Shown here: positions 3,301 through 48,435 of the stretch, one piece after another
Layout: the number at the start of each line of letters is the position of its first letter
Position numbering within the stretch: the first letter of the stretch is position 1
Source: Minisyncoccota bacterium
GTDB lineage: Bacteria > Patescibacteriota > Minisyncoccia > Phycocordibacterales > UBA9973
NCBI GenBank assembly: GCA_035510575.1
Contig: DATKGV010000004.1
Coordinates: 88,419 to 152,418, forward strand
DNA: 64,000 nt
Direction of reading: 5' to 3'
Translations under genes and position numbers: made by a program
The notes under the pieces: generated by a model
Databases searched by the model: none
The model's input: the letters and a program-made list of their open reading frames with translations, nothing else
What the model was told of the DNA's origin: nothing

Positions 3301-3952
3301 TCGCTTCAGCTCCTATATTCGCCTCGAAACAGCTTCCATATTTGAGTCCGAAATGATGATAAGCGATTTCATTAAGCACTTTTCCCAAGGTAATGTCGTT
3401 TATTTCCCTCTTGGTATTAGTCAAGAGTTCTTTTAATTTCTCTTTTTCTTCGTCATTGCTTGCGCTCTTTATTTTGGCTTTGAATTCGCTTTCAAGATTC
3501 TTGATTATTTTTTCTTTTTCCTCACTATAAACGTTTGTAATTATATATCCGGCAAAATATATGACCTTTTCAAGATCATTGACCGGTATATTCAAAAGGA
3601 CGGACATTCTGGAAGGAACCCCGCGCAAGAACCAAATATGGGCTACTGGGCTTGCCAATTCTATGTGGCCCATGCGATCGCGCCTGACTATCGAGCGAGT
3701 AACTTCAACTCCGCATTTTTCGCAGATGATGTCCTTGTAGCGTATGCGTCGGTATTTTCCGCAATAACATTCATAGTCCTTTTCAGGGCCGAATATGCGC
3801 TCATCAAAAAGCCCGTTGCGCTCGCTGCGGCCGGTTCGATAATTAATGGTCTCGGGCTTGGTAACCTCGCCATACGACCATTCGCGTATGCGTTCAGGGC
3901 TGGCCAGCTTGAGCGATATTGAATCAAAATTTGTTGTATCAATTGTTTTCAT
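314..3952 (-). CDS. rpoC: DNA-directed RNA polymerase subunit beta-prime
   Basis: The 1234-aa ORF carries rpoC hallmarks (ASPERIREWSYGEVTKPETINYRT, NADFDGDQMAV). The start was moved to the internal Met MKTIDTT (ATG rc of 3950..3952). The upstream 22 codons translate the rpoB-rpoC palindrome and overlap the rpoB stop. Confidence 0.95.
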   Translation of the reverse strand: MKTIDTTNFDSISLKLASPERIREWSYGEVTKPETINYRTGRSERNGLFDERIFGPEKDYECYCGKYRRIRYKDIICEKCGVEVTRSIVRRDRMGHIELASPVAHIWFLRGVPSRMSVLLNIPVNDLEKVIYFAGYIITNVYSEEKEKIIKNLESEFKAKIKSASNDEEKEKLKELLTNTKREINDITLGKVLNEIAYHHFGLKYGSCFEANIGAEAIYSLFKNIDLEKTRTETLAMLGKASSLEKEKLEKRLSLIRSMIASGIRPEWMFLTVIPVIPPALRPMVALDGGRHATSDLNDLYRRVINRNNRLKKLKEIGAPDVILRNEKRILQEAVDALIDNSIAKQNDSHAVSASQKRALKSLSDNLKSKQGLFRQNLLGKRVDYSGRSVIVVGPQLKLNQCGLPKHMALELFRPFVIAKVLETELAFNIRGVNRLIEEGIPEVWAILEEVIKGKYVLLNRAPTLHRLGIQAFNPILIEGNAIQVHPLVCTGFNADFDGDQMAVYVPLSDMAQKEAHDYMASNKNLLKPQDGTPIVMPKMDMVLGCYWMTKLMDGEKGEGMAFSNPNQAITAFDLGVITFRAKIKVLGSDKARYKKFEGKPFETTVGRLFFNSIFPDDFPFINEEITIKRMSLLVDELIVHYSIDATPSILDKIKDFGYHYATYSGVTWGIDNVSVPKGKSSIVNKARKEEEIVRDQFSEGLLSEEEQYQKVIEIWEQAKKEIEKIIPETLDNRGSTYDLITSGARGNMGSLVQMCGMKGLIVNTSGATLDFPIIPSYIEGLSPLEYFITTHGSRKGAADTALNTAKAGYLTRRLVDVAQDVVITQEDCGTKNGKKITATGGILAKYVHGRVLLADIKDKSGKVAFKKGSLIMKEDSKMIEKMGITEAHVRTPLSCETTHGICRMCYGLDLGRNCMIELGQAVGIIAAQAIGEPGTQLTLRTFHAGGVATVDITTGLPRVEEIFERRVPKNPAVISVTDGEVIEVKDNGKEKIIKVLSDLSSQTTLKSGVKKSEMEYVVAFRRQPLVKEGSKVKKGDLLTDGSADINDIVKYGGKEIAEEYIVSEINKVYDLQSASISRKHIEIIIRQMFSRKKIKDAGDTTFSPGEIVEAIELIEENERVEAINGKKAEASTIVLGITEVSLTTKSWLSAASFQNTNRVLINNAIRGGVDNLRGLKENVIIGNLIPAGTGFGVKKIRKIKEKTEEELANNS

Positions 3953-3965
3953 ATTGTTATTTGTT

Positions 3966-4007
3966 CCACATGTCGGACTTGTGGCTAGCCACAAGTCCGA
4001 CATGTGG
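3966..4007. repeat. 42-nt perfect palindrome CCACATGTCGGACTTGTGGCTAGCCACAAGTCCGACATGTGG in the rpoB-rpoC intergenic space
   Basis: The reverse complement, computed by hand, equals the sequence. It lies exactly between the rpoB stop (4018..4020) and the rpoC start (3952). Confidence 0.9.
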
Positions 4008-4017
4008 TCTTTTTCCA

Positions 4018-7000
4018 TTAATCATTCCGACTTCTTTTAAGATCAACATCGAGAGCCAGGCCTCGGAGATAATTCAGCAATACATTAAATGATGCCGGTA
4101 TATTCGGTTCTCCGATCGGCTGACCTTTAATAATGGCGTCAAAAGTCGCGGAGCGCCCCATGATATCGTCGGACTTGATAGTCAGCATTTCGCGAAGCGT
4201 ATAAGCGGCGCCGTGGCCTTCCAGAGCCCAGACCTCCATCTCGCCGAATCTTTGTCCGCCGCCTTGGGCCTTGCCGCCGAGCGGTTGCTGAGTAATAAGA
4301 GAGTAAGGGCCTATAGAACGCATATGCAGCTTGTCTTCAACCATGTGATGAAGCTTAAGCATGTACATATAGCCGATAGCGATATCTTGATTGAAAGCGT
4401 CTCCGGTGCGTCCGTCATACAGAGTCACTTTGCCGCTTTCGGGCAGCCCCGCTTTTACAAGTTCGGCTTTGATTTCCGGCACAGTCGCGGACGAGAAAGG
4501 AGGAATAATAGCTTGGTAGCCGAGAGTATGAGCGGCGTAGCCCAAATGCATTTCAAGAATCTGCCCCAAGTTCATGCGGGAAGGCACGCCGAGAGGCGTA
4601 AGAATTATGTCAATAGGAGTGCCATCCGCCATAAACGGCATTTCTTCTTCAGGCAGGATAATGGATATGACTCCTTTGTTTCCATGACGGCCGGCAAGCT
4701 TGTCGCCGACTGAAATATTTCTGACTTGGGCTATTTCAACAACTATCTTTTTGATAATGCCGGATTCAAGATTATGTCCTTGGTCGCGCGAGAAAATTTT
4801 CACTCCGACGACGCGTCCGCGCTTGCCATGCTCCAAGCGGAGCGATGTGTCTTTGACGTCGCGAGCTTTCTCGGTAAAAATAGATCGGAGCAAGCGCTCT
4901 TCCGGCGTAAGTTCGGTCTCGCCCTTAGGAGTAATTTTGCCGACAAGAATATCATTTTCTCCGACTTCGGCGCCGATAATCACTATTCCATCTTCGTCCA
5001 AATCCTTTAATTTATTCTCGCCGACATTCGGTATGTCGCGAGTGGTAATTTCAGGTCCGAGCTTCGTATCGCGAACGCTGCAGATGAATTCTGTAATATA
5101 AATGCTGGTAAATTTGCTTTGTTTAACTAACCTCTCGGATAATATGATGGCATCCTCATAGTTGGCGCCGCCCCACGACATGAATGCGACAAGAACATTC
5201 TGGCCGAGAGCTATCTGGCCGTTGCAGGTAGTGCTGGTATCGGCAAGAACCTCGCCTTTTTTGACGTGATCTTGGAGCGACACGCTCGGACGCTGATGAA
5301 AGATAGAAAAGTTGTTAGTGCGGGAGAAAGTGATAAGCGGATAAACGTGTTCTTTGCCTTTATCGTCTTTGACAATTATTTTTTTGGCATCGACATAAAT
5401 GACTGTTCCGCTTGTCTCTGAAATAATCAATCGTCCGGAATCGCGGCTGGCCGACTCTTCTATGCCGGTTGCAACCAGAGGAGCTTCGGGAATAACGCAT
5501 GGCAGCGCCTGCTTCTGCATGTTGCTTCCCATTAATGTTCTGTGAGCATCATCATGTTCTAGGAATGGAATCATCGAAGTAGCCACCGAAAAGGCCTGAT
5601 TGGTAGCTACGTCTATGTAGTCAATTTCACTGCGAGAAACCATTCCTGGATTGGTCTTGATGCGGGCTTCGACTCTGTCTTCTATAATATTGCCTTTTTC
5701 GTCATAATCAGTGCCGGCATGAGCAATATTGAATTTTTCTTCTTCAAGCGCATTCAAATAAACCACTTCATTGGTGATTTTTCCGTTCTTTACTTTTATA
5801 TACGGCGTTTCAATAATGCCAAATTCATTTATTTTGGCGTATGTTGAAAGGTGCAAGATAAGGCCGATATTCGGACCTTCAGGCGTATGAATAGGACATA
5901 CTCTGCCGTAGTGGGACGTGTGCACATCGCGAACTTCAAGTCCGGCGCGTTCGCGCGTCAATCCGCCTGGACCAAGCGCCGAGAGCGTTCGTAAGTGCTC
6001 AATTTCAGCCAGGACATTTTCCTGATTCATGAATTGCGAAAGTTGATTGGCGGTGAAAAATTCTTTTATGCGGGCTTGGAGCGGGCGCTGATTTATGATT
6101 TGAATTGGCATTGTCGTCCCAACATCAATAGTCGACATGCGGTCCTGAATATTTCGCTTTATCTGAGCCATGCCCATGCGTATTTTCTGCTGGAACATCT
6201 CGCCTATATAGCGCACTCGGCGCTGTCCTAAGTGATCGATATCATCGGCTTTGGCATTCAAAGTATTATTGAGCTCGACTATGTTTGAAATAATAGCTAC
6301 TATATCGTCAGCAGATATTGTGCGGCGTTCCATTTCCTTGTCATCCATGCTTTTGCCGAAACGCTTGTTAAAACGGAATCGGCCGACGGGAGAAAGATCA
6401 TAGCGCTCCCCTGAAAGCAAAGTATTTATGAATTCGCGGGCATTTTCGCCGGTCGCTAAATCGCCGTCCCTGAGGCGCTTGTATATCTCTATGAATGAAT
6501 CAGAAACAGTTTTGGCGGGGTCCTTTTCAATGCAGACCTTTATGACTTTTTCATCCAATTCGTTCCCGCCTGCTCCCGAACCTTCGTGAGGGCGGGCAGG
6601 TTTGCTGAATGCTTTCATTAGGCCTTCATTGGTCGCCAGTCCTAATACGCGAAGAAGGGACGCGATGGAAAATTTTCTTTTCTTGTCTATGCGGACATAG
6701 ATGCAGCCGTCCGGGTCGGATTCTATCTCGATCCAAACGCCTCGCGCCGGAATAATTTTCGCTCCGAAATAGCGCTTGCCTTTTATTTCTTGGTCGGTAA
6801 AAAATACGCCGAATGATCTGGTCAGCTGGGGAACAATAACGCGCTCTACCCCGTTGATTATGAAAGTGCCATGCTTGGTCATTAGCGGCACGTCAGCCAT
6901 GAATATTTCCTGCTCTTTGGAAATTCCCATGCTTTTATTAAGAAGCTTGACTCGCGCTTTGAGAGATCCTTCATAAGTCAGCTTGTTGATCTTTGAGTAT

Positions 7001-7227
7001 TCCTCGTCGAATTTCGGCTCGCCTAATGAGAATGAAGTGAAATCAAGCTGAAATTTCTTGTCGGAATAATCATTGATCGGGGAAAATTCTTTGAAAACTT
7101 CCGACAGGCCTTTTTCCACCAGCCAGTTGAAAGAAACCAGCTGATTTTCAATCAGATTAGGAAATGACACTAACGGCTTCTTATATCTGGCAAAATATTT
7201 CTTCTCTCGTTCAGCTGTTTTTTTCAT
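4018..7227 (-). CDS. rpoB: DNA-directed RNA polymerase subunit beta
   Basis: The 1081-aa ORF has conserved rpoB blocks (GPGGLTRERAGLEVRDVH, NMQKQALP, the GEMEVWALE region). The start was placed at MKKTAEREKK (ATG rc 7225..7227), which aligns with canonical rpoB N-termini. Confidence 0.95.
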   Translation of the reverse strand: MKKTAEREKKYFARYKKPLVSFPNLIENQLVSFNWLVEKGLSEVFKEFSPINDYSDKKFQLDFTSFSLGEPKFDEEYSKINKLTYEGSLKARVKLLNKSMGISKEQEIFMADVPLMTKHGTFIINGVERVIVPQLTRSFGVFFTDQEIKGKRYFGAKIIPARGVWIEIESDPDGCIYVRIDKKRKFSIASLLRVLGLATNEGLMKAFSKPARPHEGSGAGGNELDEKVIKVCIEKDPAKTVSDSFIEIYKRLRDGDLATGENAREFINTLLSGERYDLSPVGRFRFNKRFGKSMDDKEMERRTISADDIVAIISNIVELNNTLNAKADDIDHLGQRRVRYIGEMFQQKIRMGMAQIKRNIQDRMSTIDVGTTMPIQIINQRPLQARIKEFFTANQLSQFMNQENVLAEIEHLRTLSALGPGGLTRERAGLEVRDVHTSHYGRVCPIHTPEGPNIGLILHLSTYAKINEFGIIETPYIKVKNGKITNEVVYLNALEEEKFNIAHAGTDYDEKGNIIEDRVEARIKTNPGMVSRSEIDYIDVATNQAFSVATSMIPFLEHDDAHRTLMGSNMQKQALPCVIPEAPLVATGIEESASRDSGRLIISETSGTVIYVDAKKIIVKDDKGKEHVYPLITFSRTNNFSIFHQRPSVSLQDHVKKGEVLADTSTTCNGQIALGQNVLVAFMSWGGANYEDAIILSERLVKQSKFTSIYITEFICSVRDTKLGPEITTRDIPNVGENKLKDLDEDGIVIIGAEVGENDILVGKITPKGETELTPEERLLRSIFTEKARDVKDTSLRLEHGKRGRVVGVKIFSRDQGHNLESGIIKKIVVEIAQVRNISVGDKLAGRHGNKGVISIILPEEEMPFMADGTPIDIILTPLGVPSRMNLGQILEMHLGYAAHTLGYQAIIPPFSSATVPEIKAELVKAGLPESGKVTLYDGRTGDAFNQDIAIGYMYMLKLHHMVEDKLHMRSIGPYSLITQQPLGGKAQGGGQRFGEMEVWALEGHGAAYTLREMLTIKSDDIMGRSATFDAIIKGQPIGEPNIPASFNVLLNYLRGLALDVDLKRSRND

Positions 7228-7450
7228 ATAAAAAGAAAAACAAAAAAACACCAAGGCGACCAAACCTGTGCGTTATTATTTATTTATAATTGGCAGTGAT
7301 ATTGTTTTTAAGCACAAAAAATGCCTGCTACCCGCTTACAAAACTTATTAAATTAGTGCGATTGATGCCATAACTCAATCTAGTCAATCTGGGTCTGAGT
7401 ATACAGAAAAATAATTCTTTGTCAAGAAAGTTATCAACAGCATCATCGAA

Positions 7451-7561: not shown

Positions 7562-7588
7562 AGTAAGCTAGGACAGTCCTAGCTTACT
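7562..7588. repeat. REP-like palindrome AGTAAGCTAGGACAGTCCTAGCTTACT (core AAGCTAGGACAGTCCTAGCTT)
   Basis: Near-perfect palindrome with an unpaired centre base. It overlaps the last codons and the TAG stop of the RAYT gene. Confidence 0.85.
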
Positions 7589-8259
7589 GAAGTGAAATAA
7601 TTTTCAACAAATTTTTGGAATGACTGCTTTAATTGAAAATAATCTGGAAATGCTACTTTATTTAAAATATTACCTTCCACTCTATCGAGACCAAGATAAT
7701 CAAAATAACTTGAATAATTATATGATTCAAGAAAATCTTTCATTGCTTTATTGTCAACATTTTTATTCTTATCCTGTTTTTCCCAACCAGAAAACTTTAT
7801 ATCAAATACATTTAGATGGATATATGCAAAAAGTTGTCGCATATAATTATCATCTGTTTTTATACATTTTGATTTAAAAGGCCCACCGAATAAAGCACCT
7901 TGTCTTTGATATTTTATATTGAAGAACATTGAATATCCTGTACCTAATTTTTTCATAAATTTAGTAATACCACTATCTATTTCCTGTCTAACCAAAATAT
8001 GAAAATGGTTTGCCATAAGACACCATGCGCCAATTGAAACAAGCGGTTTACCCTTATCTAAAATCATAACTTCAAAAAAAGACTTTTTTTGTTGATTTAT
8101 AAGATTATTTAATTTAAATTCCTCCTGAGAATTTGAAATATAAATAAGCATAATAAATCTTTCAAAATCATATTTTGATTTGAAAATAATTCTTTTATCT
8201 ATACCACGATTGTACAAATGATAATATTCGCCAGTGATAAATGGATCTTTTCGCAACAT
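7579..8259 (-). CDS. HUH-family Y1 transposase (RAYT / IS200-like TnpA)
   Basis: Motifs: YHLYNRG N-terminal block, HUH motif NHFHILV, and the catalytic Tyr block YIHLN (compare YIYINP in E. coli RAYT). Confidence 0.75.
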   Translation of the reverse strand: MLRKDPFITGEYYHLYNRGIDKRIIFKSKYDFERFIMLIYISNSQEEFKLNNLINQQKKSFFEVMILDKGKPLVSIGAWCLMANHFHILVRQEIDSGITKFMKKLGTGYSMFFNIKYQRQGALFGGPFKSKCIKTDDNYMRQLFAYIHLNVFDIKFSGWEKQDKNKNVDNKAMKDFLESYNYSSYFDYLGLDRVEGNILNKVAFPDYFQLKQSFQKFVENYFTSVS

Positions 8260-8268
8260 GTCTTGTAT

Positions 8269-8309
8269 TATATACCATAAGCTAGGACAGTCCTAGCTTA
8301 TGGTATATA
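8269..8309. repeat. REP-like palindrome TATATACCATAAGCTAGGACAGTCCTAGCTTATGGTATATA
   Basis: 41-nt near-perfect palindrome 10 nt upstream of the RAYT start. It shares the 21-nt core with 7562..7588. Confidence 0.85.
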
Positions 8310-8343: not shown

Positions 8344-11300
8344 TTAATTTGCTGCATCACTTGGAGGAACTACAGGATCTGGAGCAGATGTAGAATCAGG
8401 CGCTGCAGGCGGAGTCACAACTTGATCGCTTGGGGGAACTGTTGTATCGTCTGCAGGCGGAGTTACTGATGAATCACTTGCAGGAGCTGTCGAATCTGAA
8501 GCTGGAACCGTTGAATCGGTGGTTGCGGGTTCGGTTGCAGATGGTGCTGATGAACCCGAATTGTCTGCGGTAGAGCTTACATGCGCATTATTTAAAATTT
8601 GAATCAATTGCGCTTCGTCAATGCAGGTATTATTGATGCAGATTTCATTGCTGCTATGAATTGTCTTGGCATACAGATCAGCGATGCCATTGGCTTGATC
8701 AGCTAAGAATTGCGTGATGAGCGAACCTAATGAAGTAGCCGAAGTCGTATCAAGAGACGAAAGATCTTTTATTTTGAGATCCATTTCTTGAATGGCTTTA
8801 ACCGCGTATGGCATCATGCCTAAGTAGTTGAGTGATAGAAGATTGGTATTTGGATCGGTAGAAACCAAATCAGGGAAGATTTGCTTTACATCTTGAGCAA
8901 TGAAGCCGGCATGCTTGGCATCGGTGTCTTGTTCAACTTTCCAATTATACGTTACTGGAACTAGAGCAAGTATTTTGTCCAGTGTTGTTATTGGAGTCGT
9001 GCCAAGTTCTGTTTCCGTCCATGCCATGCCATCTAGAGTGTTGACGTTCTTTTTTAAATTCATGTCTGAACTGCAAGCAAAACCGCTTGATATCGGCACA
9101 ACATCGCAAGTTCCTGCGGAAGTTTGAAATCTTCCTACAATTATATTAGCCGTAGTGGAAGCCGAGCCGACATGGAGAAGATAGCCGGGAGCAGTATTGG
9201 AAATTCCGACATCGCCGTTGCCTAATATTCTCATCGCTTCCGTCATTGTCTGCAATGTCGTGCCACTTCCAAGAGTTTTGCCCGTTGAGAAAATTATGTT
9301 CGAAGCTCCTGTGCCTGTGCCTAGACCAGAGTTTAGCAATAGATTTCCGCCAACCACGTTAGAAACAGAAGTTCCAGCGACAGTTGAACCTGATTGAATA
9401 GTCAGATTATTAGGCGCGACGTCAGTGGCGGAATTTTCAATCCACATGGTTCGATCAGCGCCGGCTCCGAATGATAAAATATTGGTCGGCGTACTTGTAC
9501 CAATACCCAAAGTCGTAATGCTGCTATTGCCTATCACCACCTGGTTGCTGGCGGTAGTGTAAGCGGCATTTCCCAGAGCCATTGAGTTGATAGCGCCTAC
9601 AAGCTGGCTGGCGTTACTTCCGGCGTTAGCTCCCAAAAATGTATTCTGATAGCCGACTGTTATAGACGAACCAGCCGAATTACCAATACCCGTATTAGAA
9701 CCATTATTTCCAGAACCATTCGTGAAAGAAGAAAGAGCGGAAACTCCGACAGCGACATTAGCGCCCGCGGCAGTAACGTTAGGCAGAGCGTTAGTTCCAA
9801 AAGCCGTATTGCCAGTAGTAGTTGTTTTTGCCAAAGCCCCATTGCCAACAGCCGTATTATTTCCTCCTGAAATATTTGCCGCCAGAGTGTTCCAACCAAT
9901 CGCTATATTTTGCGAGCCTGATGTCAATACATTCATAGCTCCTATGCCGATGCCGACATTCTTATCACCAGTCATTGCTGGCGGTCTGGCTCCAATAAGA
10001 ATTGAAAGAGGGTTAGCTGTGCCGATGCTCCCAGCGTTATAAACCGAGAATAGAGAACCGCCATTAGCGTCTGCCACGTTGAGAGTTGGAACATTTACTG
10101 TCGTGGTGATTGTCCAGGTAGCGCCTATGCCATGAGTAAGCTTTCCACCGAAAGTAACCGTCACGCCGTTAGATAATGCTTGAGCCGCAAGAGTAATCGC
10201 CGTATCAGCCGAACTAGCTCCGCCGTCCACATTCCAAGTGAACATATCATAACCCTGTAAAGCGGAAATATTGACTGTACAGCCCGTTCCAGTTCCGCCA
10301 GTTGTCGCTACTACTCCCGTTGAATATCCTGATCCGCCAGTCAAAAGTGTCATCGCATTACATCCCCCGCTTGATAAGCTCGTAACCTTTACGGTCGCCG
10401 CGCCATTGCCGCCAGTCAAAGTCAAAACATCATTCACTGTATAACCTGAACCGCCGACTGATTTGGCGACTGTCTTGACCGGATTTATCTCACTGATAGT
10501 AACGACATAAGACGAATTAGTATTGCCGACATAAGTTCCGCCCGCAGTAGCGTCGTTCGTTCCTGAACCTGAGAATACAACCGCTGACCGAGTCGCCAAA
10601 GATTTTACATCAAGAGTGGCGACGGGAGAAGTATTATTTATCCCTAGACGGATATTCGCCCCGTCATAAGCGGAACTAGCCCCGAAAAATATCTTGCCTT
10701 TCGTAGCGTTTGAAGTAGAATTTAAAGTTAGGTTTTCACCAGCGGCAGTACCGCCGTAAACAGTTTGCCCGCCGGCAATGCCGGTAGCCAGATTATCAGT
10801 AATGGTGTTTGTGGAACGAGTTAAGCCCGTGGAAAAAGTAAGAGGCACCTCGTAAGCGTTAGCGTTAGTGAACGCGGCTGAACCAAGAGTTCCCCCGCCA
10901 GTTGGAATAGTTAAAGTCGCTCCCGCCGCCGGCCAAGTTAAAGTTCCCGCCCCGCCGTTATTGGTGAATGTTGTAGTGAAAGTGGCGTTAGAAACGGCCA
11001 CTGCTGTTCCGCCCACTGCCAAAGCGCCAACGTCGGAATAAGTCAAATTCGTGCCATTGATTTTGTAATGAGAACCAGTCGCAATATTAACATCTCCATT
11101 AACATCTAATTTGTAGTTAGGCGCAGTTATTCCTATTCCCACTTTTTGAGCGCTATCTATTCTCATCGCTTCAGTCAAAACAGATGGCGAAGCGTCAGTC
11201 GCTGTAGAAAATGACAAATAAGTAGGAATACGAGTAGAAGCCACTGTACCGGAAACTCCGACATCTATGCTTCCCATTTCAAGATAACTTGCTCCGTCAT

Positions 11301-13923
11301 ATCCCCTGAATAGCAAACGGCCTAACATATCACCTGTGTTTACTGAAAGAAGCGCAGATGGAGTTCCGCGCGCTTTCCAAAATCCCAAGCGGGCAGAGTT
11401 TGTGCCGTTGTTTATTTGTGATGACACAATTCCTCGCGGATCAGAAGTATCAGTAGTAACGACTTGAAGTTTTGTAAGAGGAGCGGTAGTTCCGATTCCC
11501 AGACGATTATTTGTCTCATCATAAGCTGAAGCTCCCATGATTATTAAACCTTTTGTAGCGTTTGAAGTAGAAGTTAAAGTTAGATTTCCTGAAGCGGCAG
11601 TATCGCCGACTAAAGTCGTTCCGCCTGCTATGCCGACATTGTTTTGAAGATAGCCAGTGAGAGATGCAGAAGTCAAATAAGCAACATTGCTTCCCGATGT
11701 TACAAGCCCGCTTGTTCCTACTGTTACATTATTATAAGTTCCTGCAGATGTTCCTGCAGAAGTTAGGAATCCGCCGTAATTTCCCAGATCATTTGTGAAA
11801 GAAGAAAGAGCGGTCGGGAAAGTTGCCAGAGACAAATCACCTCTGAAATATTGAGATGTCGTGCCGGTGGTGATCGTGTTTTGTTTGGCATTGAGGGCAG
11901 TTTGAGTAGCAGTTGATATTGGTTTGTTAGCATCAGATGTATTATCAACATTACTTAGTCCAACTTGAGATTTGGTTAGGCCAGTTAAAGATGAACCATT
12001 GCCATTTGGAGCCAGGAAAACTGTGCCGGCATCAGTAGTGTAGACGCCGTTGGTGACTGTGCCTGCTGTTAATCCTGCGGCGGTACCAGTAATATTTGTG
12101 CCGACTAAAGCAGAAGGAGTTCCAAGGTTGGGAGTGGCAAGCGTCGGAGAGTTTCCAAATACAAGAGATCCGCTTCCCGTTTCATCCGAAATGACTCCTG
12201 CTAATTGAGCAGAAGTGGTAGCGGCAAATGCGGACAAATTATTAGTCGTCAAGGCCACGGTACCTGTAAGATCCGGGAAGGTATAAGTTTTGTCGGAAGA
12301 AGAAAGATGCGCTACATCAAAGATTCCAAATAGTGTCGGCGAAGGGCCATTTTCCAGCATTTTCAGTCCAGCGGAAGAATTATTGAGAACAATATTATAA
12401 GGTGCGGTTTGATTCCAATCCTGAGTCAAAGGACCTAAAGAAAGGACATTAGAAATATTTTGTAAACCATTGCCATAAGATAAGTTTACATTAGCGGATA
12501 GTTGTACCCATTTGGCGAGTGTTCCTGAATAAGTAAATGAAATACCGTAATAAAGAGAACTGGAGTTTTCCACAAAGCGAGCATCACCGCTTGTTGGAGC
12601 AATGCCTGTATAAGTAAAGGCCCCAGGCGTACCGCCTGTCACATTAAATATATAATCTTTAAAACCAGCAAATGTGCCAAAAGGCGCAGTTGAGGATACC
12701 AGCGCCACGCCAAATCGGTCGCCCAAAACCAAAGAATCCAGTTTTACCCACGCGCCATTTTTATATTCTACTATATCGCCCGGAGCAAAAGCGGACCAAA
12801 CACCGGTGTTTCCGCCTGTGTCAATGATATAACCGTCGCCTTCAACAGTGGTTCCGACCGGTGTAGCGGAATTGGCAATAACATTCACAGCTTGAAGCCC
12901 TGTTTTCCAATTCAATCCCATGGCATTATTATCAACGTATGTTTTTACCGCATTTTGCGTTGGATAGAGCGTGTTAGAGGTGCCAAGAGATGTGTTCGTA
13001 GATTTATTGGCAACATCTTCTGGTGTAAACCCTAAGGCAGTATTTACGTCACTCCCAGTAATTCCAGAAATGTATCCGGCAGGATTGGTGGCATTGTAAG
13101 GAGTATAGCCGATAAGTGATGCCACAGAAATATCGCCAGCCCCTAAAAGATTATTAGAATTGATTGTTTTGATATTTGTGCCGGAAACAAGAGTATCTTG
13201 TTTACCAGAAATATCAGTCGTTTGAGTAGCAGCATTTATTGTGAAATTCGGATAAGTGCCGGTAACCGAAGTGATATTAGTTCCCGCTGAAATAGCGACG
13301 GTTTGGTCGGGAGCAATAGATATATCTCCACTACCCAAAAGCGAACTAGAATTGATTGTTTTGATGTTTGTGCCGGCAGGCAAAGTTACCGTGCCGGTAA
13401 AAGTCGGCGAATTGAGAAGTGCGTATAAGCTTGAATCAATTCCTCCCAAGGTCTTGGCATTGATGGCAGCTCCGCTTGAAGTAATACGCCCTCGCGGACC
13501 GAGCGTTTCAAAAGTTATATTATTAGATGAGACCTCCACTTGAAGATAGACGGTATCATTATCTTGGAAATTATAAGTTAGAGCATCAGGATAGCCCGAT
13601 CCTGTATCTCCGATATTCACATCAAAAACACCGTTGGTAACAGAGAGAGTAGCTGTGCCGGGCGAACCTGATGGCCAAAGTTTCGCGCCAGAACCGACAG
13701 TCGGATTATCCCAAATAGAAAATTTAAAATAATAATTTGTGCCTGTTCCTCCCAAAAGAACTCCGTTTGAGTCCGTTAGCCGGCCTTGATAACTAATGAT
13801 ATTAGGAACGCCGGCGGCAGCGTGAGCAACAGAAAAAGAGAAAACGCCCAATATGAACACCGCTAAAATGGCATAGATGCTCTTTGACAAAAAATTATAT
13901 CTCCTTTCAAACATACTTTCCAA
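8344..13923 (-). CDS. Giant (1859 aa) secreted/anchored surface protein with tail-fibre-like repeats and a C-terminal intramolecular-chaperone (peptidase S74-like) domain
   Basis: N-terminal hydrophobic signal/anchor segment. Long G/T/S/N-rich repeat blocks (NTAIG..AL, GIGTTAPxxKLxV). Near the C-terminus, SSDMNLKKNVNTLDG...LALVPVTYNWK...HAGFIAQDVKQIFPDLV...LSLNYLGMMPYAVKAIQEM matches the phage tail-fibre / endosialidase chaperone domain. This is followed by a Pro/Ser/Thr-rich tail. DNA-level internal repeats are visible, for example around 13140..13400. Confidence 0.8.
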   Translation of the reverse strand: MESMFERRYNFLSKSIYAILAVFILGVFSFSVAHAAAGVPNIISYQGRLTDSNGVLLGGTGTNYYFKFSIWDNPTVGSGAKLWPSGSPGTATLSVTNGVFDVNIGDTGSGYPDALTYNFQDNDTVYLQVEVSSNNITFETLGPRGRITSSGAAINAKTLGGIDSSLYALLNSPTFTGTVTLPAGTNIKTINSSSLLGSGDISIAPDQTVAISAGTNITSVTGTYPNFTINAATQTTDISGKQDTLVSGTNIKTINSNNLLGAGDISVASLIGYTPYNATNPAGYISGITGSDVNTALGFTPEDVANKSTNTSLGTSNTLYPTQNAVKTYVDNNAMGLNWKTGLQAVNVIANSATPVGTTVEGDGYIIDTGGNTGVWSAFAPGDIVEYKNGAWVKLDSLVLGDRFGVALVSSTAPFGTFAGFKDYIFNVTGGTPGAFTYTGIAPTSGDARFVENSSSLYYGISFTYSGTLAKWVQLSANVNLSYGNGLQNISNVLSLGPLTQDWNQTAPYNIVLNNSSAGLKMLENGPSPTLFGIFDVAHLSSSDKTYTFPDLTGTVALTTNNLSAFAATTSAQLAGVISDETGSGSLVFGNSPTLATPNLGTPSALVGTNITGTAAGLTAGTVTNGVYTTDAGTVFLAPNGNGSSLTGLTKSQVGLSNVDNTSDANKPISTATQTALNAKQNTITTGTTSQYFRGDLSLATFPTALSSFTNDLGNYGGFLTSAGTSAGTYNNVTVGTSGLVTSGSNVAYLTSASLTGYLQNNVGIAGGTTLVGDTAASGNLTLTSTSNATKGLIIMGASAYDETNNRLGIGTTAPLTKLQVVTTDTSDPRGIVSSQINNGTNSARLGFWKARGTPSALLSVNTGDMLGRLLFRGYDGASYLEMGSIDVGVSGTVASTRIPTYLSFSTATDASPSVLTEAMRIDSAQKVGIGITAPNYKLDVNGDVNIATGSHYKINGTNLTYSDVGALAVGGTAVAVSNATFTTTFTNNGGAGTLTWPAAGATLTIPTGGGTLGSAAFTNANAYEVPLTFSTGLTRSTNTITDNLATGIAGGQTVYGGTAAGENLTLNSTSNATKGKIFFGASSAYDGANIRLGINNTSPVATLDVKSLATRSAVVFSGSGTNDATAGGTYVGNTNSSYVVTISEINPVKTVAKSVGGSGYTVNDVLTLTGGNGAATVKVTSLSSGGCNAMTLLTGGSGYSTGVVATTGGTGTGCTVNISALQGYDMFTWNVDGGASSADTAITLAAQALSNGVTVTFGGKLTHGIGATWTITTTVNVPTLNVADANGGSLFSVYNAGSIGTANPLSILIGARPPAMTGDKNVGIGIGAMNVLTSGSQNIAIGWNTLAANISGGNNTAVGNGALAKTTTTGNTAFGTNALPNVTAAGANVAVGVSALSSFTNGSGNNGSNTGIGNSAGSSITVGYQNTFLGANAGSNASQLVGAINSMALGNAAYTTASNQVVIGNSSITTLGIGTSTPTNILSFGAGADRTMWIENSATDVAPNNLTIQSGSTVAGTSVSNVVGGNLLLNSGLGTGTGASNIIFSTGKTLGSGTTLQTMTEAMRILGNGDVGISNTAPGYLLHVGSASTTANIIVGRFQTSAGTCDVVPISSGFACSSDMNLKKNVNTLDGMAWTETELGTTPITTLDKILALVPVTYNWKVEQDTDAKHAGFIAQDVKQIFPDLVSTDPNTNLLSLNYLGMMPYAVKAIQEMDLKIKDLSSLDTTSATSLGSLITQFLADQANGIADLYAKTIHSSNEICINNTCIDEAQLIQILNNAHVSSTADNSGSSAPSATEPATTDSTVPASDSTAPASDSSVTPPADDTTVPPSDQVVTPPAAPDSTSAPDPVVPPSDAAN

Positions 13924-17279: not shown

Positions 17280-17310
17280 AATCAGCCATAAGTCCGACTT
17301 ATGGCTGATT
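17280..17310. repeat. 31-nt palindrome AATCAGCCATAAGTCCGACTTATGGCTGATT at the trmD 3' end, followed by a T-run on the plus strand
   Basis: The right arm encodes the last codons and the TAA stop of trmD. It shares the GTCGGACTT/AAGTCCGAC core with the rpoB-rpoC palindrome. Confidence 0.8.
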
Positions 17311-18090
17311 TTTATTATTTTTCCATTCTTCTATTTTTTTACGATCTCCTGACAGCAAGACCTTCGGAACTTTATATTTTTTATTGTTATATATTAATAT
17401 TTCTGGCTTGGTATAAATTTCGCTTGACGATATCCGCTCTTCTTCGCGGGAATCAAAATTGCCAAGCACTCCCTTTACTTGCCGAGAAATTGAATCAATC
17501 AAAACCATGGCTGGTATTTCCCCTCCGGTTAAGACATAATCTCCGATTGATATTCTTCTTGCCCCGCCAAGGCGGAGTGAATCTTTAAGAATCTTATCAA
17601 CACGCGCATCAATGCCTTCATAGCGGCCGCAAATCATTATGATGTCGGTATATTTTTTAGAAAAATTCTTGGCCAAAGCTGTCGTAAATTTTTCCGCTGA
17701 TGGAACAAAATTAATAACAAGAGTTTTTGGGCGAAGATTTTGAAAAGATTTTTGAAGTCTGGCCTCGCCTTTTTTAATTTTTCTAGTATTGGCGAGGAGA
17801 TCCGAGGACTTCAAAAATCTTTTCAAAATTGAAGCCCGGACTGATTCAACAGCATTTATAATAGGTTCTGCCATCATCACCATGCCCGGACCGCCGGCAT
17901 AAGGCCGATCATCAATACGTAAAGACATATTGCCGTCAGGCCAGATCTTTTTATATTTGCCGGTGGCAAATTTGCGGGGATTAATGAAGGATACAGAAAT
18001 TTTTTTTAACTTTATCGCCCGCCCCAAAATGGACTCCTTAAGATACGAGTCAAACATTTCCGGAAACAAAGTAATAATATGGAAATTCAT
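17299..18090 (-). CDS. trmD: tRNA (guanine37-N1)-methyltransferase
   Basis: MNFHIITLFPEMFDSYL and further TrmD blocks. Sits in the rpsP-KH-trmD context. Confidence 0.9.
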   Translation of the reverse strand: MNFHIITLFPEMFDSYLKESILGRAIKLKKISVSFINPRKFATGKYKKIWPDGNMSLRIDDRPYAGGPGMVMMAEPIINAVESVRASILKRFLKSSDLLANTRKIKKGEARLQKSFQNLRPKTLVINFVPSAEKFTTALAKNFSKKYTDIIMICGRYEGIDARVDKILKDSLRLGGARRISIGDYVLTGGEIPAMVLIDSISRQVKGVLGNFDSREEERISSSEIYTKPEILIYNNKKYKVPKVLLSGDRKKIEEWKNNKNQP

Positions 18091-26633: not shown

Positions 26634-27593
26634 TTAATTCGCTTTTTTTGTAAGAATCTCTATCGCTTTAGTTAAAAGAGGTACCATGTTGTCATACATT
26701 TTAAGATTCGGAATTTCTTCAAGCGCAAACCATCTTGCGTCATCCAATCCTCCAGTGCCTTTTTCAAGGACAATATTTGCATACGGAGATTCGCCGAGAA
26801 AGAATACGACTTGCTTGCGAATTTTCCCTTTTTCCGGATGCGAGGCTATATATTCATTGCGTCCAAGCAATTCTTTTATTTTAATATCAAGGCCCATTTC
26901 TTCCTTTATCTCGCGAATGGCGCCTTGTTCTTCATTTTCATTTTCTTCAATGCTTCCTTTAGAAAGAGTCCAGTAGCCAAACACGTCATGAACGAAGGCG
27001 AAATAAATTTGGCTGTTTTCTATCGCATAAACGACGGCGCCGGCTTTTTTCTCTATCGGGAATTTAGCGGGATCAGTTTCAAAATGCTTGTTCTTCCTGC
27101 TGACATCATTCTTGCCTGGCTCGCCTATTTCCTTATAGACCCCGCCCAGAACTCCGTTTATGAATTTGCTGGAGTTTTCCCCGCCGAAACTCTTGGCAAG
27201 CTCGATTGATTCGTTGATTGCCACTTTGGGCGGCACTTCCTTATGATCGCCGAACAATAATTCATATAATCCTATACGCAGAATATTGCGGTCCACTATT
27301 GATATCTTATCAATCGGCCAATCCGGAGCGGCTTTCTCGATGATTTCATCGATAATCGGCTTTTTCTTTATAATGCCGAGAAAAAGCTCCTGCATAAATT
27401 GCGAGTCGTCAAGCCCCGGTCCGAATTCTAGAATGTTGCGATTAAGCATCTCTTTTGGATTCATTTCATTATTCAATGAAAAATCCCACTCAAAGAGCGT
27501 CTGAAGAACAATTGAACGTGAAAGGTGCCTGTTTGCCATAAAAAATCTAGAAAATAAAATCTTGAAATGTTTCTTGTATAAGAAACATTTCAA
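26634..27593 (-). CDS. nusB: NusB-like antitermination domain fused to a NUDIX hydrolase
   Basis: N-terminal NusB blocks (RHLSRSIVLQTLFEWDF...ILRIGLYELLF...FINGVLGGV). C-terminal Nudix box GSIEENENEEQGAIREIKEEMGL. Confidence 0.75.
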   Translation of the reverse strand: MKCFLYKKHFKILFSRFFMANRHLSRSIVLQTLFEWDFSLNNEMNPKEMLNRNILEFGPGLDDSQFMQELFLGIIKKKPIIDEIIEKAAPDWPIDKISIVDRNILRIGLYELLFGDHKEVPPKVAINESIELAKSFGGENSSKFINGVLGGVYKEIGEPGKNDVSRKNKHFETDPAKFPIEKKAGAVVYAIENSQIYFAFVHDVFGYWTLSKGSIEENENEEQGAIREIKEEMGLDIKIKELLGRNEYIASHPEKGKIRKQVVFFLGESPYANIVLEKGTGGLDDARWFALEEIPNLKMYDNMVPLLTKAIEILTKKAN

Positions 27594-27597
27594 GATT

Positions 27598-27807
27598 TTA
27601 TTTTTTCTTTTTAGCTTGCTTCTTCTCTACTTTCTTTACCACATCTATAACCTTGCGCCCGTTGTAAAAACCGCAATTTTTGCAAATTATATGAGTTTCC
27701 TTTGCTCCCTTGCAATTTGAACACGTGGCAAAAACCTTGGCTTTCAAGGCATGATGTGATCGGCGGTTCCCCGTATGAGCTCGCGTATGTCGCATTCGTA
27801 CTACCAT
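27598..27807 (-). CDS. rpmF: 50S ribosomal protein L32
   Basis: RMRHTRAHTGNRRSHHAL N-terminal block plus a CxxC...CxxC zinc ribbon. Confidence 0.7.
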   Translation of the reverse strand: MVVRMRHTRAHTGNRRSHHALKAKVFATCSNCKGAKETHIICKNCGFYNGRKVIDVVKKVEKKQAKKKK

Positions 27808-27889: not shown

Positions 27890-28624
27890 TTATTTGTTAG
27901 CAGTTAAAAACTTATTTAACTTGAAAGCATTCGGATGAAATCCTAATCTAATAGTTTGGGCTAATCCTTCCTGGAATTTTGATTGATGACCATTAAACAA
28001 ACTACTTGCTGTATGTTCATCAATATACTCCCAAAATGACTCCAAAACTTTTGGATCAGTTAAACTTTTGTAATAAATTGGAGCTTCTACTTCCACTGAA
28101 GTAAATCCAATTTTATGATGACCCTTACTGTCCGAAGGAGCTGAGGAGATATAAAAGTTACCCATTTTAGATGCATCTGTTTCTTCTCGAAGTTCATGCT
28201 TAACTGTATTTAAGTGGGTATTCTTTAAAATTTCCTTAAACTCTTCTGTCTTTAATGATTTACAATTTTGTAATTTTTTATGTAATTCAGCTGTAAATTC
28301 ATTAAAATACCTATTACGCAAATCCTGATCTTGAGTTGATTTATCAAGGAATTCATATCCTTTATTAAGATTCTCAGCTTCATAAGTAAGAAATACTAAA
28401 TCTCTGTGATCATCATTTTGTTCTAAAAATGAATTAATAGCAAGTAATAAATCTGCAACTCTGAATTTTCCTGCAGGTAATCTTTTTGATGGTTTTTCAA
28501 ATTCATTCTGGTATTTAACAAGAAGAATCTTTGGGTCCTCATTCAAATTAAAAGCTGCAATAGATACAGCATAATTGAGGGTATTTGGATCCTCAACTAA
28601 CGGAATAAAATCTTTGCTTTCCAT
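27890..28624 (-). CDS. Hypothetical protein (compositionally distinct, AT3-rich codons)
   Basis: 244-aa ORF with no confident motif; there is a weak, degenerate Nudix-like segment GKFRVADLLLAINSFLEQ. Its codon usage (tta, aga, third-position A/T) differs from the neighbouring core genes. Confidence 0.5.
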   Translation of the reverse strand: MESKDFIPLVEDPNTLNYAVSIAAFNLNEDPKILLVKYQNEFEKPSKRLPAGKFRVADLLLAINSFLEQNDDHRDLVFLTYEAENLNKGYEFLDKSTQDQDLRNRYFNEFTAELHKKLQNCKSLKTEEFKEILKNTHLNTVKHELREETDASKMGNFYISSAPSDSKGHHKIGFTSVEVEAPIYYKSLTDPKVLESFWEYIDEHTASSLFNGHQSKFQEGLAQTIRLGFHPNAFKLNKFLTANK

Positions 28625-30464: not shown

Positions 30465-30487
30465 TCCCATAGGTCTGACCTATGGGA
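30465..30487. repeat. REP-like palindrome TCCCATAGGTCTGACCTATGGGA
   Basis: Palindrome with arms of about 11 bp and an unpaired centre base. Lies 3 nt after the thrS stop and contains the TAG stop of RAYT2. Confidence 0.85.
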
Positions 30488-31205
30488 TTTGGTCATGGTC
30501 TAAATTAATCCAATTAAAAAGATCATTTATATGAGAATTCTTTAGATATTCAGGTAAAAATTTTTTATTAATAATTTTAATTTCTTTTCTATTTTCTAAA
30601 AAATAATCATAAAAACTGGAGTAGTAGTATTTTTTTAAATATTCTTTCGCTTTATTTTTATCTTTAATTCCCTTTTGTTTCCAGTCTGATTGAATTAATT
30701 TTATAGGGTTTAGATGTATATATGAAAATAAATAATTAAAATAGTTCTCTTCTTTTACAATTTTAGATTTAAATTTTCCTTCAAATAATGATCCAGTACG
30801 ACTATATTTTTTATTAAAGTACATTGCATAAGCAGTAGATAGTTTCCTCATGAATTCAGTAATTGGATTATATTCTTCTTCCCATAGGTCAGACCTATGG
30901 GAAATAACAAATAAATGAAAATGGTTAGGCATTAACACCCAAGCTAGTATAGATACAATAGGTGTTCCTATTTCAAAATCAAAAGCTTCAATTTTGGGAT
31001 TAACTATATTTTCACGAAAAACAAGCTTTCTTTTGGAATTACAGACATAAAGCAATTTAATAAAATGATCATAATCTTCTTTGTCTAAGAAAATATCATT
31101 TTTACCATTTCCACGATTATATAAATGGTAATATTCTTTACAAACTAAATTTTCTACTCTTAATCCCATAGTTATATTATATAATAATAGATACAAATCT
31201 CCCAT
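30480..31205 (-). CDS. HUH-family Y1 transposase (RAYT / IS200-like), second copy type, with an in-frame internal palindrome
   Basis: Motifs YHLYNRG, NHFHLFV and YIHLNP. The likely true start is MGLRVENL (ATG rc 31167..31169). The annotated ATG at 31203..31205 is itself created by the upstream palindrome. Residues SHRSDLWEE are encoded by the internal palindrome at 30879..30903. Confidence 0.7.
   Translation of the reverse strand: MGDLYLLLYNITMGLRVENLVCKEYYHLYNRGNGKNDIFLDKEDYDHFIKLLYVCNSKRKLVFRENIVNPKIEAFDFEIGTPIVSILAWVLMPNHFHLFVISHRSDLWEEEYNPITEFMRKLSTAYAMYFNKKYSRTGSLFEGKFKSKIVKEENYFNYLFSYIHLNPIKLIQSDWKQKGIKDKNKAKEYLKKYYYSSFYDYFLENRKEIKIINKKFLPEYLKNSHINDLFNWINLDHDQIP
30879..30903. repeat. 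Internal copy of the RAYT2 palindrome (TTCCCATAGGTCAGACCTATGGGAA) inside the RAYT2 coding sequence
   Basis: Same arms as the flanking copies, but the centre base is inverted (GGTCAGACC versus GGTCTGACC). It is in-frame and corresponds to an extra segment relative to RAYT1, placed right after the HUH motif. Confidence 0.85.
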
Positions 31206-31225
31206 AGGTCTGACCTATGGGAGAT
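31197..31225. repeat. REP-like palindrome ATCTCCCATAGGTCTGACCTATGGGAGAT upstream of RAYT2
   Basis: Palindrome with 14-bp arms and the same core as 30465..30487. Confidence 0.85.
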
Positions 31226-31263
31226 TTAGTTAACTTATAAACCAAGAAAAATCTTAAATTAAT

Positions 31264-46037: not shown

Positions 46038-46071
46038 TGCTACAAACTCTGCACGTGCAGAGTTTGTAGCA
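46038..46071. repeat. 34-nt perfect palindrome TGCTACAAACTCTGCACGTGCAGAGTTTGTAGCA (copy 1)
   Basis: The reverse complement, computed by hand, equals the sequence. Lies between the purD start and the stop of the Cys-rich gene. Confidence 0.9.
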
Positions 46072-47857: not shown

Positions 47858-47891
47858 TGCTACAAACTCTGCACGTGCAGAATTTGTAGCA
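47858..47891. repeat. 34-nt palindrome copy 2 (1 mismatch) centred in the divergent promoter region; candidate operator
   Basis: TGCTACAAACTCTGCACGTGCAGAATTTGTAGCA. Each arm contains a TTGTAG hexamer roughly 16-17 nt upstream of a TATAAT-like element, one for each divergent gene. Confidence 0.85.
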
Positions 47892-48401: not shown

Positions 48402-48435
48402 TGCTACAAACTCTGCAGGTGCAGAGTTTGTAGCA
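48402..48435. repeat. 34-nt palindrome copy 3 (centre CAGGTG instead of CACGTG)
   Basis: TGCTACAAACTCTGCAGGTGCAGAGTTTGTAGCA. Starts 4 nt after the stop of the PaaX-like gene. Confidence 0.85.

Follow-up and report, generated by a model that had tools for sequence, protein, structure and literature searches.

This analysis concerns a transposase-family gene and its palindromes in a stretch of 64,000 nucleotides (hereafter the window) of contig DATKGV010000004.1, from a Minisyncoccota bacterium. The gene encodes a 229-residue protein resembling the REP-associated tyrosine transposases (RAYTs; REP, repetitive extragenic palindrome), and the sequence CCCATAGGTC(W)GACCTATGGG occurs in three exact copies, at its 3′ end, inside it and 5′ of it. 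The copy inside the gene is in frame, and its conservation, descent and possible role are considered here.

The gene and its three palindromes

The features at the locus are given below; the palindromes carry no strand.

30480..31169, minus strand: RAYT-like Y1 (HUH) transposase-family gene, 229 amino acids (open reading frame, Pfam, model)
~30915-30926, minus strand: HUH motif N82-H83-F84-H85 of that gene
30720-30722, minus strand: catalytic-type Tyr150 in YIHLNP of that gene
31195..31227: upstream cognate palindrome, 33 nt, AAATCTCCCATAGGTC T GACCTATGGGAGATTT, ending 25 nt short of the true start codon
30879..30903: internal in-frame cognate palindrome, 25 nt, on the coding strand TTCCCATAGGTC T GACCTATGGGAA, encoding residues 89-97
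30465..30487: downstream cognate palindrome, 23 nt, containing the TAG stop of the gene (30480-30482)
30466-30486 (centre T), 30881-30901 (centre A) and 31201-31221 (centre T): matches of CCCATAGGTCWGACCTATGGG in a pattern search of the window

The pattern CCCATAGGTCWGACCTATGGG has exactly three matches in the window, even with three mismatches allowed, and none in 100 dinucleotide-preserving shuffles. A preliminary description of this DNA had reported three copies, at both ends of the gene and within the reading frame, and this is borne out; the perfect palindromes are longer than it gave (23, 25 and 33 nt). All three fold as single-stranded DNA with energies of -9.7 to -13.5 kcal/mol (z = -5.4 to -6.8), the upstream one at -13.5 kcal/mol. 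The downstream palindrome lies 4 nt past the stop (30461) of the convergent thrS and, as first described, contains the stop codon of the RAYT-like gene. An ATG at 31205, lying within the upstream palindrome, had been called a spurious start created by that copy; it is indeed spurious, because MGLR is where the protein begins, both in homologues and in the identical NCBI entry P0001 (“transposase [Candidatus Paceibacterota bacterium]”), which puts the true start at 31169. On the coding strand the internal copy reads ATT TCC CAT AGG TCT GAC CTA TGG GAA, or I-S-H-R-S-D-L-W-E, and this segment immediately follows NHFHLFV, in frame as the first reading had it. Measured from the first base of the Asn82 codon, the centre of this copy is at +35 nt.

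All three copies of this palindrome in the 64 kb lie at the gene, and a few solo copies flank other loci. A shorter theme, AGGNCNGNCCT, has five occurrences in the window, all at its two RAYT genes. In the DNA covered, the hairpins are thus gene-associated and form no dispersed REP family, and the earlier suggestion that REPs are being actively mobilized is not borne out by a palindrome found, within the 64 kb, only at the gene. GC skew gave no origin or terminus signal at the locus, and scans against Rfam (E≤1) and PADLOC returned nothing meaningful. A promoter scan gave 12 promoter-like sites where 10 were expected and was uninformative; the idea of an antisense promoter was dropped.

The 229-residue protein passes the Pfam Y1_Tnp profile (PF01797; 25.0 bits against a cut-off of 23), as does a paralogue in the window (27.1 bits). 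With the NCBIfam profile REP_Tyr_transpos (NF047646) the two score 41.9 and 26.4 bits, both below the equivalog cut-off of 80, which makes the gene product, as judged by sequence, a distant, RAYT-like branch of the Y1 HUH enzymes. An AlphaFold (AF2) model built on a 24-sequence alignment (predicted local distance difference test, pLDDT, 82; predicted template modelling score, pTM, 0.84) has as its best Foldseek match in the PDB the entry 4ER8 (E 1e-6, TM 0.67 on target), the RAYT of E. coli in complex with a REP hairpin, followed by the TnpA proteins of IS608, ISDra2 and IS200. The family profile had no match to PDB chains by sequence, and the link to 4ER8 comes from the fold search alone. Together with the Pfam result it upholds the original assignment to RAYT-like Y1/HUH genes flanked by their own palindrome. 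NHFH (82-85) and Y150 of YIHLNP are invariant in the homologue alignment, and in the model the HUH motif lies on strand 83-89 and the tyrosine on helix 141-158. Homologues number 7654 at E≤1e-10, almost all of them from metagenomes of Patescibacteria, or the candidate phyla radiation (CPR).

Conservation and covariation of the internal palindrome

The paralogue in the window serves for comparison as a gene without the internal copy.

7579..8259, minus strand: RAYT-like paralogue without insert, 226 amino acids, 43% identical to the window gene
7562-7588 and 8269-8309: the paralogue's own palindrome, AAGCTAGGAC A GTCCTAGCTT, in two flanking copies

Here too the downstream palindrome contains the TAG stop, and no internal copy of the paralogue's own palindrome is present. 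The paralogue adjoins an open reading frame of 1859 amino acids (8344-13923). At the insert position a BLASTP alignment shows exactly 7 residues fewer in the paralogue, where the preliminary description had noted the segment as absent, so that the insert amounts to 21 nt (7 codons), in frame, relative to relatives without the segment. In the model it falls in the loop 89-100 (pLDDT 66 for residues 91-100), a placement that had been raised beforehand as something a model could settle.

The segment is old. Among the 120 closest homologues (62-73% identity), every one has a linker of 12-16 residues after the HUH motif, vs. 7 in relatives without the insert, and presence/absence polymorphism was not seen among these nearest homologues. 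The insert peptide in this set is mostly SHRSDLW, the others being SHRSDLC, SPRSDLG and SPRQGLG; the switch from H/W to P/G corresponds to exactly one stem base pair changed, from A-T to C-G. When the DNA of genome loci of the clade is inspected, a perfect palindrome stands at the insert position in 9 of 12, and in the remaining three it has decayed, by a single mismatch in L004 and L005 and more heavily in L002. Loss or full erosion of the insert was found in none of the clade members examined.

The arms of the inner palindrome vary between loci, and in each clade genome locus they are the arms of that locus's own flanking palindromes. Those seen across the clade include CCCATAGGTC, CCCCTAGGT, GCCATAGGC, GCCTAGGAC, GCGGAAGAC, CCCCTACTC and GCGAAAGC, among others. 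The peptides encoded are unrelated to one another: beside SHRSDLW and SPRQGLG, distant members have LRKTVFR (from GCGGAAGAC), SPTLGVG (from CCCCTACTC) and VAKARLSQL (from GCGAAAGC), each still matching its own flanks. Five loci chosen for their variant peptides (L163, L165 and L168-L170) follow the same pattern. Counted over 161 genes, an inner palindrome whose inner 7-nt arm equals the own flank occurs in 39; when the flanks of other loci were substituted in 1000 permutations, the mean was 0.45 and the maximum 4. The preliminary description had held that the same segment in homologues with non-palindromic DNA would speak against an insertion. Its presence in homologues was found as envisaged, but the DNA there is palindromic too and matches its own flanks.

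To assess covariation, 16 loci were aligned by codon anchors, without any fitting to structure. Stem cells are paired in 92.6% of cases and two-sided changes affect 7 of 11 pairs; none of 500 shuffles reached the observed pairing or covariation, and slid registers pair in only 23-47%. Some compensatory pairs are synonymous on both sides, namely CAT..CTA to CAC..CTG (four loci) and AGG..GAC to AGA..GAT. Since palindromy and the match to the own flank are kept while the peptides vary, what is maintained is the DNA palindrome, together with its identity to the flanks, and not the peptide.

Descent, mosaicism and related hairpins

The inner hairpin has a fixed position. Ten loci that differ in their arms and have loops of 1, 3 or 5 nt all have its centre at exactly +35 nt, counted from the initial base of the HUH Asn codon; in other loci it is at +38, +41 or +44, in the same codon phase. 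The gene order gyrB-RAYT-thrS, with thrS convergent, is kept in the window and in eight fully sampled loci (L002, L003, L006 and L008-L012), across which ThrS is 46-62% and GyrB 72-83% identical. Fixed centre and synteny together argue against repeated re-insertion. On the sequence evidence they point to a single ancient acquisition in a gene passed on vertically, whose three hairpin copies have since changed in place and in concert. A hot spot drawing one re-insertion after another was accordingly rejected for the main clade, where centre position and codon phase are fixed. In L165 a convergent class-II aminoacyl-tRNA synthetase gene lies immediately downstream of the RAYT gene; paralogous lineages of the clade are found elsewhere, again at conserved places: upstream of rpoB, after trmD, or beside MacB/SecE or lysine-biosynthesis genes.

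Intermediate states of such change can be seen. In L166, with the flank GCCTAGGTC, the inner right arm already reads CCTAGGC and the left arm still GCATAGG, giving the peptide SHRSDLG; the left arm of L167 is likewise unconverted. Two of the syntenic orthologues have an odd flank: in L003 the upstream copy (CCACAGGC CTT GCCTGTGG) and in L010 the downstream copy (CCCCTAGGC AAG GCCTAGGGG) are of a different hairpin type from the other two copies, which suggests that flank hairpins are replaceable as units.

Family members are also mosaics of N- and C-terminal parts, as found at loci L168, L169, L166, L170 and L163 (the genes of P0037, P0079, P0054, P0031 and P0035, respectively). P0037 (L168) is 92% identical to P0103 in its 5′ part, where it also shares 90-91% DNA identity with P0079 (L169), upstream and inner hairpins included, and 94% identical to P0031 and P0054 in its 3′ part. 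The DNA breakpoint lies at gene nt 290-324, beside the hairpin at 267-291 (chi-square 38-42). In a partition-free test with simulation, 13 of the 14 best mosaic events break at residues 87-125, vs. 20% expected for uniform breakpoints, the events being non-independent and resolved to ~30 nt. Conservation in the gene is highest at residues 100-125, just past the hairpin, where homologous crossovers would be expected in any case, which leaves the clustering no more than suggestive.

In other clades, in-frame copies of the own flanking hairpin occur at two further positions. These came to light in a metagenome scan in which the matches listed were mostly relatives at 40-59% identity, and which added no close relatives. 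The second position precedes the HUH motif by 19-31 residues (18 loci); the third follows it by ~70-75 residues and comes just past the helix of the catalytic tyrosine. Each of the three insertion positions corresponds to a loop in the model, and for two of these the model confidence is lower: loop 43-72 (pLDDT 58-79), loop 89-100, and the stretch after helix 141-158 (pLDDT ~89-95). In L119 and L145 the post-HUH copy seems to have been gained independently. Three genes (L050-L052) contain two in-frame copies each, one before the HUH motif and one after the catalytic tyrosine. Two-copy genes are found as well at L042, L040, L068 and L073, all in distant clades (Beckwithbacteria-type and other metagenome-assembled genomes of the Patescibacteria group); both internal copies of L050 encode the identical peptide KQRGKASLL, and L068 has a hairpin doublet within the gene.

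Across the family the palindromes are odd-centred (176 of 190 have a loop of 1, 3 or 5 nt) and share the inner theme ..AGG(N)C / G(N)CCT... The median distance between upstream palindrome and start codon is 23 nt (161 genes), the downstream palindrome overlaps the stop codon in 35 of 101, and the same arm is present on both flanks in 51 of the 161 genes. The stems are perfect, and no conserved tag (such as 5′ GTAG) was found outside the palindrome in family loci. Loop orientation was considered as a sign of polarity and rejected: upstream and downstream copies are in the same orientation in 24 cases and inverted in 27, and centre bases vary. Between upstream and inner copies the orientation is mostly inverted at one insertion site and mostly the same at another.

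Several other palindromes in the window were recorded. At 17280-17310 there is a perfect palindrome standing alone, AATCAGCCATAAGTC C GACTTATGGCTGATT, with a T-run after it; it overlaps the stop of the open reading frame 17299-18090 (minus strand). Its arms equal the cognate hairpin of the RAYT gene in metagenome locus L081 (GCCATAAGTC), which suggests a third RAYT gene elsewhere in the genome or an orphan site. A 42-nt perfect palindrome at 3966-4007 consists of two imperfect hairpins in inverted orientation (CCACATGTC G GACTTGTGG / CCACAAGTC C GACATGTGG), a doublet like those called REPINs (REP doublets forming hairpins), at the junction of open reading frames 314-4018 and 4018-7263 (both minus strand); similar doublets flank RAYT genes in L101, L114 and L116. 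An unrelated palindrome (TGCTACAAACTCTGCA..TGCAGAGTTTGTAGCA) has three copies, at 46038-46071, 47858-47891 and 48402-48435, in successive intergenic gaps within 2.4 kb, where none would be expected by chance. The longest inverted repeat of the window (27551-27604; 25-nt AT-rich arms, 100% complementary, with a 4-nt spacer) runs from within the 5′ end of open reading frame 26634-27593 into the gap before 27890-28624 (both minus strand).

Possible role of the internal palindrome

The reading that we favour, with a probability of roughly 0.55, is that the inner hairpin is a cis-acting DNA site maintained for the encoded enzyme. It draws on what was observed of conservation, position, covariation, match to the own flanks, a model loop of lower confidence and intact catalytic motifs. 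The hairpin would then be a third cis-acting site of the gene, and its 7-9 residue peptide a tolerated passenger. Y1 enzymes bind and cut single-stranded hairpins (PMC3333891, 4ER8), and the inner palindrome may be an ancient copy, in frame and inherited vertically with the gene, of the hairpin presumed to be recognized by the Y1 (HUH) enzyme; three copies identical within a locus and diverging between genomes would then represent concerted evolution. Perfect odd-centred palindromes in AT-rich DNA could extrude as hairpins or cruciforms on both strands, which would fit the lack of polarity. The enzyme might bind at the inner hairpin and perhaps nick or exchange strands there, and strand exchange could keep the three copies homogeneous; for homogenized units of 21-25 bp at fixed positions, enzyme-driven exchange would be a better explanation than RecA-type conversion. 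Binding within the gene could also feed back on its own expression or mobility, or tether the enzyme in cis.

Several points weigh against this reading. Roughly a fifth of the clade's inner copies contain 1-2 mismatches within a gene that is itself intact (L002, L004, L005, L085, L089 and L161), which indicates that the site can be dispensed with, at least for a short time. Neither the sequence nor the orientation of the loop is conserved, and the polarity typical of IS200/IS605 ends was not seen among these palindromes. No guide or cleavage tetranucleotide was identified for the hairpins, and their binding by the protein is presumed by analogy with its family. Finally, ordinary gene conversion together with quasi-palindrome correction could homogenize the copies without any function.

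This last point leads to the alternative that survives best, which we regard as unlikely overall but deserving of serious weight: a single in-frame insertion of a REP-like hairpin into a permissive loop did no harm and has persisted as a functionless relic, with passive gene conversion and template switching perfecting the quasi-palindromes. Many genes are known to contain in-frame intragenic REPs or Rickettsia palindromic elements (RPEs), which are regarded as tolerated (PMC3733652). The loop positions of all three insertion sites and the decayed copies within intact genes fit such a history, and the mosaic family members indicate that recombination between copies does happen. Against a relic, perfect arms of 9-12 bp persist across lineages whose synonymous sites must be saturated, given the divergence of ThrS, and the insert has been neither lost nor fully eroded in any clade member. 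Internal copies were moreover acquired independently at three positions, with two of them in one gene in L050-L052, and tracts of 20-25 bp are very short for RecA-type conversion.

An element acting at the RNA level is improbable by comparison. The hairpin is transcribed in frame, and as an mRNA structure it could limit transposase expression, for example if ribosomes paused there, if an RNase processed it or if the protein bound its own mRNA, much as IS200 is controlled by mRNA stem-loops according to work cited, at second hand, in PMC3733652. The flanking palindromes of the window gene look terminator-like and score as such on the minus strand, whereas no T-run follows the internal copy. Any hairpin would serve such a purpose, with no need for a match to the flanks, and G-U pairs are not favoured among the imperfect stem cells of the covariation alignment, where 6 wobble pairs stand against 13 mismatches. 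The internal copy has no Rfam match.

Slightly less probable again is a module boundary, in which the hairpins would delimit cassettes (upstream to inner, inner to downstream) that are swapped between paralogues by the enzyme or by recombination. The strong N/C mosaics, with the P0037 breakpoint next to the hairpin and the clustering of events past the HUH motif, are what it would lead one to expect, but homologous recombination would cross in the conserved block in any case, and the dependence among events and their coarse resolution limit what the clustering can say.

Very improbable is the proposal of the preliminary description, that in this genome a mobile REP recently and independently entered the gene of its own transposase and may have inactivated it. 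The insert of exactly 7 codons relative to the paralogue and a centre base unlike that of the flanking copies had favoured it; yet all 120 nearest homologues carry the segment, at the same nucleotide position in syntenic orthologues, and the homologues have all retained the HUH and Tyr motifs and an unbroken frame, which speaks against inactivation. Within the 64 kb the palindrome, moreover, is confined to its three copies at the gene, and the flipped centre carries no information, as centre and loop vary freely among copies and loci and loop orientation is unconserved. Equally improbable is selection for SHRSDLW as a protein motif with palindromy and flank similarity as by-products. The closest 120 homologues do keep this peptide well, but across the clade unrelated peptides take its position, with palindromy and the match to the own flank preserved. 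The changes at this position, H/W to P/G or synonymous, are exactly those that stem compensation demands, and the loop is modelled with lower confidence.

The preferred reading of a maintained DNA site can be carried further, more tentatively and with doubt prevailing. The gene might be a self-addressed unit of hairpin-bounded cassettes, in which the inner hairpin would be a working substrate that the enzyme binds, and perhaps cleaves and religates, inside its own gene; the unit would regulate itself, homogenize three sites (four in some clades) through enzyme-driven strand exchange and swap the halves of paralogues. If true, this would be a self-referential protein-DNA recognition pair whose changes of specificity would be legible from thousands of natural loci.

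Among known systems the REPtron comes closest, that is, a RAYT/TnpA-REP gene flanked by REP hairpins or bacterial interspersed mosaic elements (BIMEs), as for E. coli yafM (Nunvar 2010, PMC2817692; Ton-Hoang 2012, PMC3333891; structure 4ER8). Shared with it are the Y1 HUH fold with a single catalytic Tyr and the best structural match, the bracketing of the gene by cognate palindromes, with each paralogue having its own hairpin, and, as for domesticated RAYTs, vertical inheritance at a fixed syntenic locus (gyrB-RAYT-thrS). In contrast to a REPtron, the protein here falls under the NCBIfam RAYT cut-off, the palindromes are perfect, lack the 5′ GTAG tag and form no high-copy dispersed family within the 64 kb, and a third copy lies inside the coding sequence. 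The locus is also like IS200 in being a small unit of one Y1 gene between two hairpins, long-lived and of low mobility, whose hairpins may double as transcription insulators or terminators. It is unlike IS200 in its longer protein (~225 amino acids) with a RAYT-like C-terminal region, in that no identical multi-copy elements were seen (the window copies are 43% identical and have different hairpins, and the orthologues are syntenic), in its unconserved end polarity and in its internal hairpin.

With the RPEs and intragenic REPs the insert has in common that a short palindromic repeat lies in frame and adds a few residues in a tolerated region. In-frame intragenic GTAG/CGTC REPs have been interpreted as unconstrained hits in unrelated genes (Di Nocera 2013, PMC3733652). 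Here, however, the host is the presumed enzyme gene of the element itself, and the insert is clade-fixed and co-evolves with its flanks. The RAYT/REP literature searched, with incomplete coverage, so that absence is no proof of novelty, describes in-frame REPs in other genes and none in a RAYT gene; in the same incomplete coverage, nothing was found on RAYTs of Patescibacteria.

To our knowledge, a conserved cognate hairpin inside a RAYT gene has not been described before. The phiX174 gene A and pT181 repC are familiar cases of an HUH initiator gene with its own origin or nick site inside it. There, as proposed here, the cognate cis site lies inside the coding sequence of the HUH enzyme and favours cis action; those sites, unlike the present one, are phage and plasmid replication origins with a defined nick site, and the hairpin here is associated with no known nick site or replicon.

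The RAYT/REP pair is the textbook example of a domesticated transposase with its own repeat family, and a question it raises is how enzyme and hairpin stay matched. Each locus of the kind described here holds three or four hairpin copies within 0.8 kb, one of them under coding constraint, and the thousands of natural variants among the homologues are a data set for the recognition code between Y1 enzymes and hairpins. The same data set serves the study of concerted evolution of very short repeats and the question of whether an HUH enzyme acts on its own gene. The change from H/W to P/G, brought about by a single stem base pair, illustrates that DNA-structure constraints can dictate protein sequence, and the internal hairpin adds to the reduced genomes of Patescibacteria a feature that the automatic annotation “transposase” hides.

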